Source: a virus (taxonomy: Duplodnaviria > Heunggongvirae > Uroviricota > Caudoviricetes). From it: a DNA stretch of 41,084 nt. Of this stretch, positions 4,723 to 40,594 are shown in pieces (within the stretch, counting starts at the first letter, position 1; every line of letters begins with the position of its first letter). A model generated the notes under the pieces. The model did not search any database, was not told where the DNA came from, and saw only the letters and a list, made by a program, of their open reading frames with translations. Position numbers and translations under genes: made by a program. Where the stretch lies: IMG/VR virus record IMGVR_UViG_2667527588_000007, positions 1 to 41,084 of that record. One strand, 5' to 3'.

Positions 4723-5547
4723 TCAGGCGGTGAAAGTACCAATAAAGGTTTCTACTTTGCTGTCTTTGAATTTCTCAACAAGCAGATCACGAAATTCGTT
4801 AGCCATATCTTCCTGCACTGCTTCCAGCTGAATAATGCGCAGAACCAGTACAGGACGATCGCCAGTGATAATGCTGAGGCGTAATTTAAACGGACGTTCT
4901 TTCAGACCTTCAAACGGAACGCATTTAAATTCAAATGCCACTGGCATAATGTCTTTGGTCTTCGCTTCGACAGATTCCATCAGGGAGCGTTTGCCGCTGA
5001 AGTCATTATCTTCAAAATCAGCGGTCTGGTTTGCTTCAATCGTGATTTTACGGATTGCCGCAGCCGCTTTTGTTGCCTGAATGGCGTCACCATTAGCATC
5101 AAAGCCCACAAGGTAGTCGGCCCAGTCTTCAATCCATTCTGCCAGTGACTTCTGGGAGTTACGCTCGCCGTTAACAGACAACAGAGCAGAGAACGGTGCT
5201 GTCTTTTTCAGTTTGAGTGTGGCGGTGTTATCTGCGTGACCTGGTTCATCAATAGTACCCAGGTTAAGCACACTGACGGCACGCATATTATCAGCATCGA
5301 TAAAGCAGCGGGTGCCTTCATCTGCAAGATCTTTAGAATAACGGGTAAAGTCATCGATGCTGGCAGTGGAAAGCGCACCACGGAAACGGAAGCGATTTAA
5401 ATTAAATTTTTCCAGATCATGAATGCGGAAATTCTCAGGCAATGCCACAGCATCGGCACCAATCTTACTGATAATTTCATTAACACCCTGAGCAGAAATA
5501 AGGGCATGGATTTGATTAATTGCGGTTGCGTCTAAGTTCTGAGACAT
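4723..5547 (-). CDS. YfdQ-like (DUF2303 family) phage protein
   Basis: 274 aa beginning [12 protein letters not shown]; recalled as conserved prophage family adjacent to an HD-hydrolase as in CPS-53-type prophages; GAGGA RBS. Confidence 0.55.
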
Positions 5548-12297: not shown

Positions 12298-13293
12298 GTG
12301 ACCGTGAGAGCACTACTGACCCCTGAAATTGCCCCGCGTATGGGGATCGTATTGTTCAGACCAGGTTCAGAGCTGATGCCCCTGTTTATGCAGGGGCGTG
12401 TCCTGCTGGAGCCTGAGCCGGAACGTTATTCATCTTTCCCCAGTGGTGCCGTTCCGGCGGCATCACAACCGCTGGCGGATGATCCTGCCGTTCGGGCCGT
12501 GTTCCGTAATGAGGCAGTGATCCGTCGTGCTGGTGGCGTGGAATGTCTTGAAAGCTGGTTACTTCGTGAAAAAGGCTGCCAGTGGCCTCATTCCGACTGG
12601 CACAGCGAGAACATGACCACAATGCGACACGCGCCGGGCGCGATCCGTCTGTGCTGGCACTGCGATAACCAGCTGCGCGATCAGTTCACGGAACGGCTGG
12701 AATCAATGGCAACGGATAACTGTGCCCGCTGGGTGTTGTCTGTTGTGCGTCGGGATCTCGGTTTTGATGACAGTCACGTTGTGACAATGCCGGAACTGTG
12801 CTGGTGGCTGGTTCGTAATGATCTGGCGGATGCCTTACCGGAAAGCGCAGCCCGTAAGGCACTGAGATTACCGAAGCCTGTTGTGCCGTCTGTCACCCGG
12901 GAAAGTGACCTTGTGCCTTCGGTTCCAGCCACCAGCATCATGCAGGATAAAGCGAAAAAGGTGCTGGCGCTGAAAGTGGAGCCGGAGTCGCCGGAGTCTT
13001 TTATGTTACGCCCCAAACGTCGCCGCTGGGTTAATGAAAAGTACACGCGCTGGGTTAAGACACAGCCGTGTGCATGTTGTGGAAAGCCTGCTGATGATCC
13101 CCACCACCTGATAGGCCACGGTCAGGGTGGAATGGGTACAAAAGCGCATGACCTTTTTGTGTTGCCTTTGTGCAGAAAGCATCACGACGAGCTGCATGCG
13201 GATACCGTGGCATTTGAAGAGAAGTATGGTTCCCAGCTGGAGCTGATATTTCGTTTTATCGATCGTGCGCTGGCAATAGGCGTACTGGCGTAA
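12298..13293 (+). CDS. DUF968-family phage protein (C-terminal Cys/His cluster)
   Basis: C-terminal CACCGKPADDPHHLIGHGQGGMGTKAHDLFVLPLCRKHHDELH, recalled as DUF968 (YdfU-type prophage proteins); GTG start after GAGGTG. Confidence 0.6.
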   Translation: MTVRALLTPEIAPRMGIVLFRPGSELMPLFMQGRVLLEPEPERYSSFPSGAVPAASQPLADDPAVRAVFRNEAVIRRAGGVECLESWLLREKGCQWPHSDWHSENMTTMRHAPGAIRLCWHCDNQLRDQFTERLESMATDNCARWVLSVVRRDLGFDDSHVVTMPELCWWLVRNDLADALPESAARKALRLPKPVVPSVTRESDLVPSVPATSIMQDKAKKVLALKVEPESPESFMLRPKRRRWVNEKYTRWVKTQPCACCGKPADDPHHLIGHGQGGMGTKAHDLFVLPLCRKHHDELHADTVAFEEKYGSQLELIFRFIDRALAIGVLA

Positions 13294-13306
13294 GTGGAGA
13301 ACGAGC

Positions 13307-14059
13307 ATGAACCTTGAAGCCTTACCGAAATATTACTCCCCGAAATCTCCAAAACTGAGCGATGACGCCCCGGCGACAGGCTCTGGTGGTTTAACGATTA
13401 CGGATGTGATGGCTGCGCAGGGGATGGTGCAGTCGAAAGCACCGCTTGGGTTTGCCTTATTCCTGGCAAAAGTTGGTGTTCAGGATCCTCAGTTTGCGAT
13501 TGAAGGTCTGCTCAATTACGCGATGGCACTGGATAACCCGACATTGAATAAATTGAGTGAAGAAACCCGGCTACAGATCATTCCTTACCTTGTGAATTTT
13601 GCCTTTGCTGATTATTCCAGGTCTGCGGCAAGTAAGGCTCGCTGTGAGCATTGTGCTGGTACTGGATTTCATAATGTATTGCGCGAAGTGGTGAAACACT
13701 CCAGAAGCGGGGAGTCTGTTATCAAGGAAGAGTGGGTGAAGGAACTATGTCAGCATTGTCATGGTAAGGGAGAAGTCAGCACAGCGTGCAGAGGGTGTAA
13801 GGGTAAAGGTATTGTCCTGGATGAAAAAAGAACCCGGCTTCATGGTACGCCTGTTTATAAGATTTGTGGGCGTTGCAATGGAAAACGGTTTAGTCGTTTA
13901 CCAACCACACTGGCGCGGCATCATGTCCAGAAACTGGTACCAGACCTGACGGATTATCAGTGGTACAAAGGATATGCAGATGTCATTGATAAACTGGTTA
14001 CAAAGTGCTGGCAGGAGGAATCTTACGCTGAAGCACAATTGAGAAAGGTGACAAGATAA
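13307..14059 (+). CDS. Q: late-gene antitermination protein Q
   Basis: 250 aa with CxxC...CxxC zinc-finger region (CEHCAGTG ... CQHCHGKG ... CRGCKGKG); positioned immediately upstream of late promoter and lysis genes. Confidence 0.75.
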   Translation: MNLEALPKYYSPKSPKLSDDAPATGSGGLTITDVMAAQGMVQSKAPLGFALFLAKVGVQDPQFAIEGLLNYAMALDNPTLNKLSEETRLQIIPYLVNFAFADYSRSAASKARCEHCAGTGFHNVLREVVKHSRSGESVIKEEWVKELCQHCHGKGEVSTACRGCKGKGIVLDEKRTRLHGTPVYKICGRCNGKRFSRLPTTLARHHVQKLVPDLTDYQWYKGYADVIDKLVTKCWQEESYAEAQLRKVTR

Positions 14060-14090
14060 GTGATCTTCGCCGAAAATGGTGACATCATGC

Positions 14091-14119
14091 TTGCAATTTT
14101 CAAAAAACATGGATAAGAT
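14091..14119 (+). promoter_or_regulatory. candidate late promoter (PR'-like)
   Basis: TTGCAA, 17-nt spacer, TAAGAT directly downstream of Q. Confidence 0.4.
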
Positions 14120-14167
14120 TTTCTCAACGATGGGCTTTATGTATCTGCTGTTGATAACCTTCAAGAA

Positions 14168-14190
14168 CTCGCCATTGAGCGGGTTTTTTA
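14168..14190 (+). terminator. candidate tR'-like terminator
   Basis: Short hairpin CTCGCC-ATTGA-GCGGG followed by TTTTTTATT. Confidence 0.35.
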
Positions 14191-14261
14191 TTGTGTAAAA
14201 ACAGAATGACGGTATTAATTAGTAATATAATTATTCGACCATACAACTAGGGGTCGAAAAA

Positions 14262-15047
14262 ATGTATGTTTTTGAGTTAATCAAGCCAGGCAGTAATCTT
14301 AAGTTTGAAAACAGAGAGTTAGAATGGACGTTTAATAACTTATTATCCCATTTAGAAACTGCATTTTATGATGCTAATGTAGCATTAAATTTATTCGAAC
14401 AGGAAAGAACTAAGAATAACAGTAAATTCGATAATATTTCTCAGACATGGCAAGCTGATGTACAGAAACGACAAGCACTGGAAATGCTGGTTCGTAAAGA
14501 GTTTGGTTATCAACCTTATGAATATTCAGAACAGGTTTTTTCAGAGGTCGAGCTACGTCTAAAAAGAGAAAAATGGAATAACGGTGAATATCCGTTGGCT
14601 CATCAACACAGATTGATCTTCTTACATGCAAAATCATTTCTCTACGCTTTGGATGCTATTGATAAATTTTTAAAGGTAATTTCAAAAGAAAATGGCGCGC
14701 CAGAGAACATTAAAAAATTGCATGAACAGCTTTCTAAAGACTTTCCGGATTTAAGAAAGGTAAGGAATTCAGCTCAACACATGGAAGACAGAGTTCGTGG
14801 GCTTGGTGCAGAGAAAGAACCAAAGCCAATAAAACTCAAACCTGTAAATAATATTCATGTTGTTGCACCTCAGGGGGCATTGATGTTGAATAACTTATTC
14901 GGAACTAAATTTGGGTGCACTATGGCTGATGGCTATTATGGTGAAGTAGATATTTCGACAGAGTCTTTGGCAAAGTTGCAAAATTTAATCCAAAAAGTTT
15001 TTAATTCCTTCAGTTGGGAAGGACCAAAGCAACACCTTCCCCGATAA
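14262..15047 (+). CDS. hypothetical protein with HEPN-like RNxxxH motif (candidate abortive-infection/defence moron)
   Basis: 261 aa, AT-rich, all-helical composition; motif RNSAQH fits HEPN R-x4-H; own TATAAT -10 (14226-14231) and own terminator (15065-15097); located between Q and holin. Confidence 0.6.
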   Translation: MYVFELIKPGSNLKFENRELEWTFNNLLSHLETAFYDANVALNLFEQERTKNNSKFDNISQTWQADVQKRQALEMLVRKEFGYQPYEYSEQVFSEVELRLKREKWNNGEYPLAHQHRLIFLHAKSFLYALDAIDKFLKVISKENGAPENIKKLHEQLSKDFPDLRKVRNSAQHMEDRVRGLGAEKEPKPIKLKPVNNIHVVAPQGALMLNNLFGTKFGCTMADGYYGEVDISTESLAKLQNLIQKVFNSFSWEGPKQHLPR

Positions 15048-15064
15048 CATTTTCTTTTTTATTG

Positions 15065-15097
15065 AAAGCCGCCAAATAATTGGCGGCTTTTTTATTT
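15065..15097 (+). terminator. strong intrinsic terminator after moron
   Basis: GCCGCC-AAATAATT-GGCGGC hairpin followed by TTTTTTATTT. Confidence 0.8.
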
Positions 15098-15136
15098 CAC
15101 AGTACCCGCAAATATCGCGAGGTGAGAGATGACGAA

Positions 15137-34978: not shown

Positions 34979-35626
34979 ATGCATCGTATAGACACGAAAA
35001 CCGCGCAGAAGGATAAGTTCGGCGCGGGTAAGAACGGTTTTACCCGTGGTAACCCCCAGACAGGCACGCCTGCCACCGATCTGGATGATGACTACTTTGA
35101 CATGTTGCAGGAAGAACTCTGCAGCGTGGTGGAGGCATCCGGTGCCAGCCTGGAGAAGGGGCGAAACGACCAGTTGCTTACCGCGCTTCGTGCTCTGCTG
35201 TTAAGCCGCAAGAATCCGTTTGGTGATATCAAATCGGATGGCACGGTGAAAATGGCTCTCGAAAACCTTGGTTTGGGAGAAGCGGCAAAACGGAATGTGG
35301 GGACAGGAGAAAATCAGGTACCGGATATGAACAACTTTGGTAACTCATTGACCGCCAATGGATACCAGAAATTACCTGGGGGGATGATTATTCAATGGGG
35401 GAGTTTTTCTGTCTCACCAACCGGAGGAAGTGTTGGAACAGTTGATATAACATTACCTGTAGCTTTCCCTGCTGCTTGTCGTTCGGTAAACGCTCTTATT
35501 TCAACTAATGATCCTTCTGCCCGTTCTGTGGGCTTTGATATTGGAAGTACCAACAGAACTAAAATCAGATTTACTTACACTTCTGCTACAACAAATTCAA
35601 TTTACTGGATGGCTGTGGGGTATTAA
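34979..35626 (+). CDS. tail fibre protein (constant N-terminal part plus variable C-terminal part in current orientation)
   Basis: 215 aa; ORF crosses the left inversion site at 35258-35281 in frame. Confidence 0.75.
35258..35281. repeat. left recombination site of invertible segment (gix/hix-like)
   Basis: CTCGAAAACCTTGGTTTGGGAGAA; inverted relative to 37081-37106 with 2 central mismatches over about 20 bp. Confidence 0.7.
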
Positions 35627-36634: not shown

Positions 36635-37089
36635 CAGGCAGCCCTCACGATATAATTAAAGGCAATGTTACGAGGTCGGTTTTCGTTTGCAGTTGGAACA
36701 ACTCTGGAAGCATCGAATGTTACTCGCTTTGCATAACCACCTTTAATTGAATCCGATGAAGCATCTCCGATGACGCTGGTTGTAAAAACGCCAGAATCAG
36801 AAGGATAGGTATTGAACCTGACATCCACTAATGCACCAATTATATTTCGAATGGCATCGCCCTGTGATGAAAGCAAGCTACGGTTAGTATCTATTCCTCT
36901 TCCGTCATCCCAGCCACGAATAAACTCACCACGTAAATCTGGCAATTTATTTGTCGGATAAACTTTTGCCAGTTCCGGATACTCTTCGGCAGAAAAAGGC
37001 GCACCATTGCATTTCAGCCAGCCTGTTGGCGGAGTGGCTGAAGGCCACGGAACAGGCACACCAACGGGTAATGCCGAACCTTCTCCCAA
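36634..37089 (-). CDS. alternative tail fibre C-terminal segment (promoterless; expressed only after inversion)
   Basis: 151-aa ORF beginning inside the right inversion site; would fuse in frame (…LGLGE/GSALPVG…) to the constant fibre part after inversion. Confidence 0.65.
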   Translation of the reverse strand: MGEGSALPVGVPVPWPSATPPTGWLKCNGAPFSAEEYPELAKVYPTNKLPDLRGEFIRGWDDGRGIDTNRSLLSSQGDAIRNIIGALVDVRFNTYPSDSGVFTTSVIGDASSDSIKGGYAKRVTFDASRVVPTANENRPRNIAFNYIVRAA

Positions 37090-37106
37090 ACCAACCTTTT
37101 AGAAAA
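37081..37106. repeat. right recombination site of invertible segment
   Basis: TTCTCCCAAACCAACCTTTTAGAAAA, reverse complement of left site; directly upstream of invertase remnant. Confidence 0.7.
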
Positions 37107-37159
37107 TGCAGTAATTCCGCTCAGATGGCATGATCCAAGCTTTTTAAGGGGCATTTCTC

Positions 37160-37498
37160 ATGCTCATCGGTTATGTACGTGTGTCAACAAATGACCAGAA
37201 CACCGCATTGCAACGAAACGCACTGGAGTGCGCAGGATGTGAACTGATATTCGAGGATAAGATCAGCGGCAGATGGGGGGGCAGTCAGGGGGTTGCCCAG
37301 CTCAATTTGTTTGATGAAAACGCGCCACGCCCGGGTAGTGAGAAACTGATGGAAGTGTTGGATCACCTCAACGCCAAAGACGGCAGGGGAACCTTGTACT
37401 TTACCAGGCAGGGTATCCAGCCACAGTTGCAGATGAAACGCGAGATGCTTTCACCTAGATATACAACGAGATATGATGACATATTAAGAGTTAAATAG
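37160..37498 (+). pseudogene. serine DNA invertase (Pin/Gin/Hin family) remnant: only the first 37 codons conserved
   Basis: MLIGYVRVSTNDQNTALQRNALECAGCELIFEDKISG matches invertase N-terminus including catalytic Ser; downstream sequence in all frames lacks the remaining catalytic core; break coincides with a G7 run. Confidence 0.7.
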
Positions 37499-37517
37499 AA
37501 CATCAGCGAGGTGATAA

Positions 37518-38513
37518 ATGAAAGGGATATATTATGAGAATACTCGAACCTCTATACCGGGGTGGATATCAAACCTTCATGAAACTCAAAGGTTTGGTTA
37601 CGCTTATGAAACAAGTACTCACTTTGTTCATTTATATGGTAAAGCTGAACCTTTTAATGTCATATCAGTTGGCCTTACCGCAATACAAGGTAAAAGTGGG
37701 ACTCTAAATGATTGGGTTATAAATACATTTGGAGCAACTAACATCCAAACATTACAAAATGATATCGGACATGTTGTTGAAGGTGTCTGGAGACCATCTT
37801 TATATTATAGCGATGACATTCAAGGTGCGTTGTTAGTTGATCCGTTCGAGAAAATGTCGTCAGGACAAGCTCTGCGCAATCTTATTAATAAACTCGATGA
37901 ATTATTTTTGTACATTGAGCCAAGCATCACAGGTCTGAAAGCATATAGCCATAAATGCAGGGAGCTATTAATTTTGGCTTGTACAGAAGTTGAGAATCAG
38001 TGGGTGTCACTGATAAAAAAAACAAACCTAAATAATGTAGGGGCTAGATATACAACTAGGGACTATGTACGGCTTGCAGATAAATGTTTTTTAAAAGAAT
38101 ACAAGGTGAATTTTAAAAATTACTCAGGCTTAAGAGATTTCACACCATTTTTATCTTGGGTTCCGACTGCCTCTACTGGCTCTTTACCTTGGTACGATGC
38201 TTATAATGGAACTAAGCATGATAGGGAAGCAGGTTTTAATCTCGCATCATTGGAGAATGTGATGGATGCCTTATCTGCTTGTATAGTATTGTATTGTGTT
38301 AAATATGGACCTTATGATTTGGTGTCTGGTGGGGATCTGCTTTCAGGAACGTTTAACGAGCATTTTTCTCTTAGTTTCATAAATAGTGATAAAAGTAGCT
38401 ATTACGTTCCCGAATTGAATTTTAACGCAAACGCAATAACAGACTTGTGTGTGATTGACTGTTATAGAGAAAAACTCAACAAAGCATGGGTTACAGAACC
38501 TCTTGTTTTATAG
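37518..38513 (+). CDS. hypothetical protein (AT-rich accessory gene at invertase-proximal hotspot)
   Basis: 331 aa, GAGGTG RBS, AT-rich with Asn/Tyr-rich composition; occupies DNA that replaced the invertase 3' portion. Confidence 0.6.
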   Translation: MKGIYYENTRTSIPGWISNLHETQRFGYAYETSTHFVHLYGKAEPFNVISVGLTAIQGKSGTLNDWVINTFGATNIQTLQNDIGHVVEGVWRPSLYYSDDIQGALLVDPFEKMSSGQALRNLINKLDELFLYIEPSITGLKAYSHKCRELLILACTEVENQWVSLIKKTNLNNVGARYTTRDYVRLADKCFLKEYKVNFKNYSGLRDFTPFLSWVPTASTGSLPWYDAYNGTKHDREAGFNLASLENVMDALSACIVLYCVKYGPYDLVSGGDLLSGTFNEHFSLSFINSDKSSYYVPELNFNANAITDLCVIDCYREKLNKAWVTEPLVL

Positions 38514-39174
38514 GTAGTATTAATTCAGCACCTTGATTTTTTGTATTTCCCACGGCACGCGTCACGGCGTGCCAGATAAACGTGTCGGCAGACGCTGTAC
38601 CCTTAGCAACAATCTCCTCCACCACTCTACCTACGACATTCTGCCGTATCCACTCACGAGCTGCTTCCGGTGATAGCACCAGCGGCCGGCGATCATGAAT
38701 ATCTACCAGCCCTTTATCCGCAGCAGTAGTTACAATCAGGAACCCCTCAGCTTCATCGCCACGTTCAAATGGTGTGCTGCCAATAGCGGCCATGAATATA
38801 GGCTGGCCGTCAGCCCTGCGAATGAAGTAGGGCTGTTTTATAATGCCTTCGCGCTTCCATTCGAACCAACCATCAGCAAAGCAAATTGCACGTCCATGCA
38901 ACCAGAGAGGTTTGAACATTCGGCTGGTGGCCGCAGTTTCTGAGCGTGCGTTAATCAGCGGAGGTTTATTCCACCATCCGGGAGCGAATCCCCAGATAAC
39001 AGGATCGAGGTGCAACTGTTCGTCGCGTTCGCTCAAAAGCAGAACTTTGGTACCGGGTGCAACGTTGAATCGTCCAATTGGTTCTGGAACGTATGGGATG
39101 TCACGCTCAGCTTCTTCTGATAGGAGGGCAAGATAGTCTTCACGCGTCATTGATTGGGCGAAACGTCCGCACAT
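38491..39174 (-). CDS. SOS-response-associated peptidase (SRAP / YedK-like abasic-site processing protein)
   Basis: N-terminal MCGRFAQ with catalytic Cys2; 227 aa; GGAGG RBS. Confidence 0.8.
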   Translation of the reverse strand: MCGRFAQSMTREDYLALLSEEAERDIPYVPEPIGRFNVAPGTKVLLLSERDEQLHLDPVIWGFAPGWWNKPPLINARSETAATSRMFKPLWLHGRAICFADGWFEWKREGIIKQPYFIRRADGQPIFMAAIGSTPFERGDEAEGFLIVTTAADKGLVDIHDRRPLVLSPEAAREWIRQNVVGRVVEEIVAKGTASADTFIWHAVTRAVGNTKNQGAELILPIKQEVL

Positions 39175-39217
39175 AGAAACCTCCAGTCACCAGACTGAAA
39201 GTATAGGGTAGGGATAC

Positions 39218-39242
39218 AAAAAAGCCCGCATAAGCGGGCTTT
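39218..39242 (-). terminator. intrinsic terminator (minus-strand orientation)
   Basis: GCCCGC-ATAA-GCGGGC hairpin with A6 on plus strand (U-run on minus-strand transcript). Confidence 0.6.
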
Positions 39243-39370
39243 CATGTCACTCGGGAGCCGCGGCTCCTTTACGTATCCTTTTTTGTCTCCTCACCGTCTA
39301 GTCGGTGTCCTGCTGAGACTGCTAACTTCCTGTTTTTGTTAGTGCTGTCCTGGCACTGTCCAATCATGAT

Positions 39371-39398
39371 TGGTGGAGCTGGCGGGAGTTGAACCCGC
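39371..39398 (-). other. 28-nt fragment identical to the 3' end of tmRNA (ssrA); probable att-site remnant
   Basis: Minus strand reads GCGGGTTCAACTCCCGCCAGCTCCACCA, the T-arm and acceptor 3' end of E. coli tmRNA as recalled; upstream sequence does not continue the tmRNA. Confidence 0.55.
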
Positions 39399-39689
39399 AG
39401 ACACGTCGTATGCAAGAACTTGCTGCGGCTGGATGGTGGACTTTCGATAGTGCGAGTATTGAATGATGTCCAGCCGTTATTGATTTTACGTATTTTTTGC
39501 ATGAAAAGATTAGCACCTCATCCCACCGCTCCTCCATGATTTTACACCACTGTCTCTAGAGCTCTGTGTGCCAGAAGCGGAAGTTCATACCTCTAAGTGG
39601 ATATTTTGTTAAAATATGCCATCAAAATCCTTGCTACCTCATGGTTGACAGTGATAAAAGTTGCACAAATTACTGAGAGAGAAATTACA

Positions 39690-40127
39690 ATGAGTGGAGA
39701 TACCTCTGAGTTTCCTAATAAACTTCCCAGAAAGCCAATAGGTTGGCGTGAAGAATATAGTGATTTTACAGGTAGTATTATATTCTATATGATATTCCCG
39801 TTGCTTCCATTACTTTTTGAGTCAATTAACACAGGAACTCACCCTTCAATACAATCATTAACAATTACTGCATCAATATACTCTTTTTCCATCGGTGTAT
39901 CTTCTCGAGATAAAGCTATTTTTTGCTTAGGGATTTTTTGTGGTTTCATTCTCGCTTATCTTTACGGTAAAGTTAGTGAGCCAAAAGTTATTATATATAC
40001 CTGGTACTATGTAGTTACGGTGATACTACTGGCTGTAATATTTATATTTCATCTTCTCGAACGATTTAATAAACACGTGGTAGAATGTGAACCTGTTTTC
40101 TCCTTTAAGTTTACGAGAGGTATGTAA
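39690..40127 (+). CDS. hypothetical multi-pass membrane protein
   Basis: ATG at 39690 preceded by purine-rich GAGAGAGA and a TTGACA -35-like motif (39645-39650); AT-rich; several hydrophobic segments; track start at 39597 is GTG. Confidence 0.5.
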   Translation: MSGDTSEFPNKLPRKPIGWREEYSDFTGSIIFYMIFPLLPLLFESINTGTHPSIQSLTITASIYSFSIGVSSRDKAIFCLGIFCGFILAYLYGKVSEPKVIIYTWYYVVTVILLAVIFIFHLLERFNKHVVECEPVFSFKFTRGM

Positions 40128-40594
40128 TGGAGGATATTATATTTATGTATGCTGGGTTGATAGTGTCTTCTTTAGCGGCAATTGTAGGCTTAGCTACATC
40201 TATCATGCATACTCGTAAAAAAGTTAAAGCTAATGAAGAGCTTGCAACTGAAATGGCAAAGAGCTTTAGTGAGCTTGAATCTATCAATAAAAGCATAGGG
40301 GATTTGGAAGCGACAATTAAAAGGATAGATGAAGATGAATTAAAGTTAAGAATAGCAATTGAATCTTTAAAGGAAATGACTTCTGATGAAAAAAAAGAAT
40401 CTAGGGATATGTTGAAAAACATCGTTAATGATGAGGTGTTCATTAAAGTTCTTCTCGAAAGCTATAAAAAACTGGATACCCAGTCAAAGAAGGAGATTTA
40501 TTTGACTTTTTCCAAGTCGACAGATAGAGGCCTTTATCGATATATAAAAAGAATAGCTTCATCAGTACTCGATAACTTAATGGTTAAAATATAA
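40127..40594 (+). CDS. hypothetical membrane-anchored coiled-coil protein
   Basis: TAATG coupling to upstream gene; GAGAGG RBS; N-terminal TM helix followed by Glu/Lys-rich helical region; AT-rich. Confidence 0.55.
   Translation: MEDIIFMYAGLIVSSLAAIVGLATSIMHTRKKVKANEELATEMAKSFSELESINKSIGDLEATIKRIDEDELKLRIAIESLKEMTSDEKKESRDMLKNIVNDEVFIKVLLESYKKLDTQSKKEIYLTFSKSTDRGLYRYIKRIASSVLDNLMVKI

Follow-up and report, generated by a model that had tools for sequence, protein, structure and literature searches.

The stretch of DNA analysed here (the window; 41,084 nt, IMG/VR virus record IMGVR_UViG_2667527588_000007) is an Escherichia coli prophage with a Mu/e14-type baseplate and tail-fibre module, integrated beside tRNA-Thr(CGT) with its integrase side at thrW. 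We concentrate on the locus at the end of the tail-fibre module, where an invertible segment is followed by the stump of a Pin/Gin-type invertase gene, a 3' remnant of umuC, an intact gene for a protein of 331 amino acids (aa) that we call X, and a convergent gene for an SOS-response-associated peptidase (SRAP). Table 1 lists the features; the questions are how the invertase was lost and what X is.

Table 1. Features of the invertase-X-SRAP locus, in window positions
Feature	Position	Strand	Basis or remark
Invertible tail-fibre segment	35259..37103		24-nt inverted crossover sites at 35259-35282 and 37080-37103
Invertase remnant, codons 1-38 of a Pin/Gin-type serine invertase	37160..37273	+	100% identity to residues 1-38 of LP50-1 Pin
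Probable deletion junction, T plus G7 run	37274..37281	+	Sequence comparison with LP50-1 pin and 19AR1321 umuC
umuC 3' remnant, UmuC residues ~352-422 and stop	37282..37498	+	DUF4113, NCBIfam UmuC, tblastn
Shine-Dalgarno sequence GAGGTG of X	37508..37513	+	Read from the sequence; 4 nt before the ATG
X, 331-aa protein, WP_057075761.1, PHROG 19461	37518..38513	+	Candidate stand-alone defence/conflict effector
SRAP, YedK-like SOS-response-associated peptidase, intact	38491..39174	-	Pfam SRAP, NCBIfam PRK09951
Copy of the ssrA (tmRNA) 3' end	39366..39393	-	Sequence GCGGGTTCAACTCCCGCCAGCTCCACCA; partial Rfam tmRNA match

The first 38 codons of the invertase gene (MLIGYVRVSTNDQNTALQRNALECAGCELIFEDKISGR) are 100% identical to those of the intact 184-aa Pin-type invertase of E. 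coli LP50-1; a preliminary description of this DNA had recognised the truncation and counted 37. Pfam Resolvase matches residues 3-39 against model positions 2-46 of 145, and Ser9 is kept, while the remaining catalytic domain and the helix-turn-helix (HTH) are gone: residues 1-38 are all that is present of a complete resolvase catalytic domain of ~140 aa, and with the intact 184-aa Pin as tblastn query nothing past codon 38 (including the C-terminal HTH) was found anywhere in the window. The invertase is thus dead, as had been proposed, and RefSeq labels the stump an incomplete DNA-invertase pseudogene. The pin DNA homology ends at 37273, just before the G7 run (37275-37281) that had been pointed out as the point of truncation. 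It had also been claimed that homology stops there in all frames, which does not hold: no invertase sequence occurs in the three frames downstream of the junction, but the next 71 codons in the frame of pin encode the C-terminus of UmuC (DUF4113 in Pfam, E=1.9e-20; positions 352-422 of the 422 in the NCBIfam UmuC model, E=1.3e-32; 75% identity to intact UmuC by tblastn). The open reading frame (ORF) at 37160-37498 (339 bp) is therefore a 112-aa pin'-'umuC chimera with both parts in frame, its last ~71 codons coming from umuC; RefSeq lists its halves in strain TB06052 as two separate pseudogenes. The IMS polymerase core of UmuC (palm, fingers, thumb and little finger) is not in the window, which holds residues ~352-422 (DUF4113) only, whereas the intact UmuC homologue of a related prophage (contig L115) has IMS, IMS_C and DUF4113.

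Homopolymer runs are prone to error, and an assembly or sequencing artefact at the G7 run could in principle make an intact invertase look truncated, as the preliminary description had itself cautioned. We give this practically no chance, because the identical 339-bp chimera ORF is present in 8/10 independent E. coli assemblies that carry this allele of X, and both TB06052 and a metagenome scaffold match the window at 99.8% or more (the scaffold also has a 112-aa Resolvase+DUF4113 ORF). Moreover, the DNA after the junction is umuC, so no frameshift there could restore the invertase.

X starts 19 bases after the end of the chimera ORF, and it is, as described earlier, an AT-rich ORF (GC 35-38% against about 52% in the flanks) with its own ribosome-binding site. 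The SRAP gene is convergent with X, and the 3' ends of the two genes overlap by 23 bp. SRAP has the full-length domain (PF02586, with residues 1-210 aligned to positions 1-213 of the 214 in the model, E=2.5e-48; NCBIfam PRK09951, 430 bits with a cut-off of 349), and its N-terminus MCGRF contains the catalytic Cys2. We note that in three assemblies (L102, L108 and L109) SRAP is broken by insertion sequence elements (IS66- and IS3-family transposase genes) at the equivalent of window ~38698-38752; X and the chimera of these assemblies are still 99-100% identical to the window.

The layout from which the chimera can be derived is found in contig L115, a related prophage whose X allele is 66% identical to that of the window. 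Its gene order is lambdoid tail genes, invertible fibre region, intact invertase (MLIGYVRVSTNDQNTDLQ...), LexA box, umuD, umuC, X and SRAP; the LexA box (CTGTATATAAAAACAG) is perfect and lies at 5246, 33 bp before umuD, the full umuC is followed by a 32-bp gap and then X, and SRAP overlaps X by 23 bp as in the window. Homology to L115 picks up again at 37282, and window 37282-39147 is colinear with L115 6752-8630 at 70% DNA identity. An Enterobacter hormaechei contig (L112; X allele of 67% identity) has a 'umuC remnant, X, SRAP and DinI, is colinear with the same block, and shares the 23-bp X/SRAP overlap with the window and L115. With umuC-3', X and SRAP colinear at 70% with L115, this must be an old block whose parts diverged together, and X was not inserted into it. 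The comparison with intact-pin prophages suggested in the preliminary description could be made, and it fixed the junction at the T and G7 run, where pin codon 38 is connected to umuC codon ~349.

We conclude that the locus is very probably a deletion scar in an invertase / LexA-umuD-umuC-X / SRAP module. The intact ancestral module would have consisted of invertase, LexA box, umuD, umuC, X and convergent SRAP, an accessory module that e14/SfV-like and lambdoid prophages have at their tail-fibre end. One deletion of ~2.1 kb, from pin codon 38 to umuC codon ~349, would account for the present sequence: it would have taken the body of the invertase, the LexA operator and promoter, umuD and the catalytic core of Pol V, and left X and SRAP intact. 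X itself is, judging from the shared gene order, an old resident downstream of umuC that appears to have been present before the lesion.

The preliminary description had instead explained the locus by the insertion of a foreign orphan gene on the distal side of the invertase, which would have cut the invertase short at the G7 run and put an end to tail-fibre switching. X is indeed AT-rich relative to its flanks, the invertase stops abruptly at codon 38, and the pin-to-att region varies among related prophages, all of which speaks for an insertion; but the DNA that follows the junction is umuC rather than X, X lies 220 bp further on, at the position downstream of umuC that it has in the intact L115, and the whole umuC-3'/X/SRAP block is colinear. 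When the flanks of X were searched for the direct or inverted repeats that an insertion might leave, only short chance-level matches came up, and the fibre segment is found in both orientations behind the identical chimera (see below). We regard insertion as highly improbable, and the intact layout of L115 replaces it with the deletion.

Other relatives differ in what they carry at this place. E. coli LP50-1 (L015) has an intact pin, then a umuC remnant, two unrelated small genes and SRAP; in 19AR1321 no gene separates umuD and umuC from the convergent SRAP, which lies beside the real ssrA; and an e14-like prophage at icd has three hypotheticals between invertase and attachment site. These comparisons support the view that the DNA from invertase to attachment site is a variable accessory region, and the earlier statement that the invertase-distal region serves as a cargo region is borne out by the other genes found there in LP50-1 and in the e14-like prophage. 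The slot between umuC remnant and SRAP in LP50-1 (L015 6148-7076) encodes a 206-aa hypothetical protein and a DUF2188 protein with a weak PADLOC match to PDC-S16; these differ from X, and the slot therefore holds different candidate conflict genes across prophages. From LP50-1 we had considered X as a cassette swapped between a pre-existing umuC remnant and SRAP, an idea that was dropped since the whole block is colinear in L115 and L112.

To the right of SRAP, the ssrA fragment has a partial Rfam tmRNA match (E=1.4e-4, under the gathering score), and the real ssrA adjoins the SRAP gene in 19AR1321; the fragment is likely an attachment-site remnant of the module's former carrier. An ssrA copy on this side together with an integrase side at thrW suggests a mosaic right end that came from an ssrA-integrating element. 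No thrW repeat of at least 14 nt that could mark attR was found inside the window. Past the ssrA fragment lies an AT-rich (31-37% GC) gene pair (39597-40594, plus strand), of which the 176-aa ORF matches phrog_22626 and the 155-aa ORF has weak, sub-threshold matches only; ORFs of these two lengths also lie beyond X and SRAP, at the equivalent place, in most of the ten E. coli assemblies.

No LexA box was found in window 36900-39300, and no terminator-like site between umuC and X in L115, which suggests that X was formerly co-transcribed with umuDC and is now transcribed from the pin promoter. X would thus once have been the third cistron of an SOS-controlled umuDC operon, and its transcripts would now start at the promoter of the invertase gene. 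The neighbourhood of X has no excess of promoter-like sites over shuffled sequence.

The invertible segment was examined in the same assemblies. Its crossover sites form an inverted repeat (I1) that is 88% complementary, and it holds alternative fibre C-termini and tail-fibre assembly genes, with Pfam Collar and Caudo_TAP on minus-strand ORFs. Assembly L106 has the identical chimera, with segment 35268-37103 inverted exactly at the crossover sites; in L107 the segment is inverted too, with the same breakpoints, and the right flank is 99.96% identical, with no exact copy of the chimera ORF. Given that the deletion junction is a single historical event and that both orientations occur, the segment has flipped, or has been exchanged between prophages, since the deletion, so the proposal that the invertase was lost at the expense of tail-fibre switching is not supported. 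Pin, Gin, Cin and Hin cross-complement, and the simplest mechanism would be that the fibre segment can still flip by means of an invertase supplied in trans. Truncated or frameshifted invertases beside such segments are common in other E. coli prophages too, and a prophage that loses its own invertase need not have its tail-fibre switch frozen.

We then asked what X is. The description of X as an orphan with no recognisable family was right in one respect, namely that X has no match above noise in Pfam or NCBIfam (the same holds, with PADLOC included, for all 34 members of alignment A1). It is no orphan, since it matches PHROG 19461 (function unknown) over its whole length (E=4.8e-139; residues 1-331 aligned to positions 1-331 of a model of 331), and an exhaustive profile search found 2,713 cluster representatives (50% identity) at E<=1e-3, including 665 at E<=1e-30. 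The 543 homologues found by word-indexed search are 331-333 aa long throughout, have 46-68% identity, and come from Enterobacterales, Vibrio, Acinetobacter, Pseudomonas, Treponema, Bacteroidota and Planctomycetota. When a single genome per species was scanned, 62 loci in at least 10 phyla were obtained (including Patescibacteria, Cyanobacteriota, Fusobacteriota and Acidobacteriota); among 5,426 complete E. coli genomes a copy is detectable in at least 16, which is a minimum because sensitivity at the DNA level limits the search. No papers came up in the literature for WP_057075761, phrog_19461 or YP_009785143. Across the superfamily, mean pairwise identity is 40% at residues ~110-270 and 17% at each terminus; R92, P135, R148, E159, T180, Y183, L192, W214, W225, Y226, Y229, K233, H234 and Y296 are invariant, and E157, N230 and R236 are conserved at 90% or more. 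The X superfamily is very large, phylogenetically patchy and uncharacterised, with a variable N-terminal domain and a conserved helical core that may resemble the HEPN fold.

The AlphaFold2 model of X, built from a 34-sequence alignment (pLDDT 90.7, pTM 0.90), has a beta-rich N-terminal domain (~1-95), a helical, possibly HEPN-like region (~98-282) and short C-terminal strands. The top-ranked Foldseek matches are HI0074 and the HEPN/MNT toxins 7ae2 and 5yep, at non-significant E values of about 0.2, and a fold search of BFVD gave one significant match only, an unannotated 153-aa fragment. In the model the conserved polar residues form a cluster, with R148...E157-x-E159 lying along a single long helix and Y229-N-x-x-K233-H234-x-R236 where a helix is broken; R148, E157, E159, Y229, K233, H234 and R236 would make up a non-canonical active centre. 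It is possible, though we hold it tentatively, that the N-terminal domain senses infection or damage and that the HEPN-like core with this cluster acts as a metal-independent RNase in the style of abortive infection.

The window encodes another ORF that is relevant to HEPN proteins. It is 261 aa long (14262-15047, plus strand), sits in a moron slot with antiterminator-side genes on one side and the holin/lysis cassette on the other, shows the canonical R-x4-H motif of HEPN proteins (…RKVRNSAQHMEDR…), and has no Pfam or PADLOC match; the region around it (13289-15113) differs from the otherwise near-identical TB06052 prophage. This ORF may represent another Abi-like gene of the prophage, unrelated to X. 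Comparing the X superfamily profile with this protein using hhalign gave a probability below 1%, and so did the comparison with a PD-T7-3-like DUF4145 protein that neighbours one X relative.

With homologues in hand, we were able to look at the genes around X relatives. In Salmonella phage SEN8 the X homologue is gene 1, 109 bp from cos, followed by an HNH gene and then the portal gene gpQ, and 7 further SEN8-like viral contigs have the same layout; E. coli C21 has gpA, DinI, an RNase-toxin/immunity pair, the X-like gene, an HNH gene and gpQ. In P2, the cos-proximal stretch from gpA to gpQ is a defence hotspot, in which old/tin and further validated systems reside (Rousset et al. 2022, PMC9122126). 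Distant relatives are found in type I restriction-modification (R-M) operons, in the orders HsdS, X-like, Shedu SduA_C protein, HsdR (L079) and HsdR, HsdM, HsdS, X-like (L075), or with HsdR directly after the X-like gene (L084), and a position inside such operons was predictive of genes with a working defence function in the studies of TgvAB (PMC11411939) and of 'guilt-by-embedding' (Payne et al. 2024, bioRxiv 10.1101/2024.01.29.577857). Other neighbours include Gabija GajA/GajB with a NACHT ATPase, and the PD-T7-3-like protein mentioned above with an integrase; a relative in Pectobacterium is cargo of an integrative and conjugative element (ICE), between type IV secretion system and integrase, and relatives also occur on IncF plasmids. 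Among 149 immediate neighbours at 37 loci, type I R-M components and integrases are the commonest, and no conserved partner gene recurs. Placement in defence hotspots and beside defence systems is thus recurrent, as a qualitative observation, and the phyletic distribution is patchy.

Mobile-element and defence-island contexts and the lack of a partner make X a stand-alone accessory gene and exclude a structural role. The only point in favour of X as a conserved tail or structural component of this phage group, an outcome that the preliminary description had named as fatal to its own view of an accessory gene, is that X adjoins tail-fibre genes; its homologues are found in phyla that lack this phage, as well as in type I R-M operons, on IncF plasmids and on an ICE, and the X of P2-like phages occupies a non-structural cos-proximal hotspot. 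We consider a structural function next to impossible, and the accessory, non-structural nature of the gene is upheld. From genomic context, X is probably a single-gene effector of anti-phage defence or of conflict between mobile elements, and a deletion-scarred remnant module with X as such an effector is, with about the same modest confidence, the explanation that we prefer for the locus as a whole.

A further possibility is that X is a toxin and belongs to an addiction (toxin-antitoxin) module by which the mobile element is stabilised, comparable to HEPN/MNT or yafNO. The best small-domain structural matches are HEPN toxins, and dinB-yafN-yafO-yafP is generally known as a precedent for an RNase toxin in the operon of a Y-family polymerase. 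Against this, X lacks a conserved partner ORF, the 37 loci have no recurrent neighbour family and no MNT-like gene was seen; in the window X has a 19-bp gap upstream and the SRAP overlap downstream, and in SEN8 it has cos on one side and the HNH gene on the other. We find this reading quite unlikely.

Slightly more weight, though still little, goes to the possibility that X is a DNA-damage-response accessory that works with UmuDC and SRAP (at lesions or stalled forks, or in SOS regulation) and has no anti-phage role. In L115, X follows umuC in an operon with a LexA box, the convergent overlap with SRAP is kept in three diverged alleles, and DinI adjoins in Enterobacter. There are at least 6 independent contexts with umuDC 0-6 kb from an X-family member (the clade of the window; the P0030 island and plasmid; L033, L034 and L036; L037; L055; L075), of which L033, L034 and L036 are relatives at 35% identity beside umuDC in P2-like hotspots. 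Most of the umuDC operons near X-family genes (L033/L034/L036, L037, L010/L005, L055 and L075) have LexA boxes. Near the X family, umuDC is commoner than expected by chance. However, umuC was found within 10 kb at only 2 of the 62 cross-phyla loci, so the link is not a family-wide rule, and for most members the setting is free of SOS genes (a P2 hotspot, a type I R-M operon, an integrase island or the cargo of an ICE); in the window and in Enterobacter, umuDC has decayed and X has been kept intact. We read the umuDC link mainly as shared cargo space.

Several observations weigh against X as a defence effector in a deletion-scarred module. The recurrent umuDC/SRAP/DinI neighbourhood could mean a role in DNA damage instead. 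X has no PADLOC-DB v2.0.0 match at E<=1, and 10 of its distant relatives have none at E<=0.1; distant members have no Pfam or NCBIfam match either, and a profile search of PDB sequences gave two chance-level matches for A1 (best E=0.28) and none for A2. All family members are named 'hypothetical protein' at their sources, and we know of no experiment on any of them. The fold match may not reflect homology, given a Foldseek E of ~0.2 and the fact that four-helix bundles can converge. The HEPN motif Rx4-6H is absent from A1 and A2 (no pair of columns with R>=80% and H>=80%, 5-7 residues apart), and X therefore works at most like a HEPN protein and is not filed as a member of that superfamily. 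Finally, we infer two steps of the proposed history: the transcription of X from the pin promoter, which the loss of the LexA box suggests, and inversion in trans, in place of which recombination between prophages could have given both orientations.

The invertase stump is ordinary prophage decay, and the value of the locus is in the adjoining gene family. With thousands of members from Patescibacteria to Enterobacteriaceae, a confident model, sharply defined invariant polar residues and repeated occurrence in the best-validated hotspots of defence genes (the P2 cos locus, type I R-M operons and the vicinity of Gabija), the X family is a well-posed defence candidate, and it may be a HEPN-like enzyme with a different catalytic solution. 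The most far-reaching proposal, which we put forward at somewhat less than even confidence, is that X represents a new widespread single-gene anti-phage family with a variable N-terminal sensor and a HEPN-like effector (E-x-E and Y-N-x-x-K-H-x-R in place of Rx4-6H), wired to the SOS response as a third umuDC cistron in its ancestral enterobacterial setting, and in the lineage of the window uncoupled from LexA by the deletion and brought under the invertase promoter. The link with umuDC, SRAP and DinI raises the question whether some mobile elements place conflict effectors under SOS control, for which the natural variants, i.e., the intact L115 operon and the LexA-less fusion of the window, are well suited.

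Compared with known defence loci, X homologues (56-60% identity) occupy exactly the cos-proximal slot of the P2 hotspot in SEN8 and in E. coli P2-like prophages, whereas the window has its X in another type of phage and at another place. The X family is not among the systems validated in the hotspot study (PMC9122126), and in those parts of its supplements that were searched the family motifs and accessions do not appear; Table S5A of its hotspot catalogue has a recurring 'HNH_2 + hypothetical' (e.g., WP_023304084 + WP_113444594), which may be the X-like and HNH pair of SEN8 and C21. Distant X relatives resemble R-M-embedded genes (PrrC, TgvAB and the guilt-by-embedding candidates) in lying between hsdS and hsdR or abutting either on the same strand, while X itself is not embedded in this way. 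None of the embedded candidates that were tested in those studies matches the X family, and HEC-08 is a DUF3644 protein with zinc ribbons and a canonical Rx4-6H.

With respect to HEPN RNases (AbiV 9bj5, the HEPN/MNT toxins 8xdj, 7ae2 and 5yep, and Csm6 6tug), X differs in having K233-H234-x-R236 in place of Rx4-6H, an insertion of ~55 residues between the core helices and an extra beta-rich N-terminal domain of ~95 residues, and in lacking an MNT or other partner, profile similarity to PDB chains and a HEPN Pfam match.

The right end of e14 in E. coli K-12, which has the order invertible P segment, pin, mcrA and attR, shares with the window a Mu-type baseplate/tail-fibre module ending in an invertible segment with 24-nt crossover sites and a Pin-type invertase, and an accessory, defence-type gene between invertase and attachment site. 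In the window, by contrast, what is left of the invertase is 38 codons joined to the end of umuC, a decayed umuDC-X-SRAP module takes the place of mcrA as accessory DNA, and the prophage sits at thrW and has an ssrA-type remnant on its right side. The dinB-yafN-yafO-yafP operon of E. coli is a LexA-controlled Y-family polymerase operon with a downstream gene for an RNase-type toxin. Although yafNO is a two-gene toxin-antitoxin pair, whereas X has no partner and its RNase activity is hypothesised, this operon parallels the order LexA box, umuD, umuC, X of L115.

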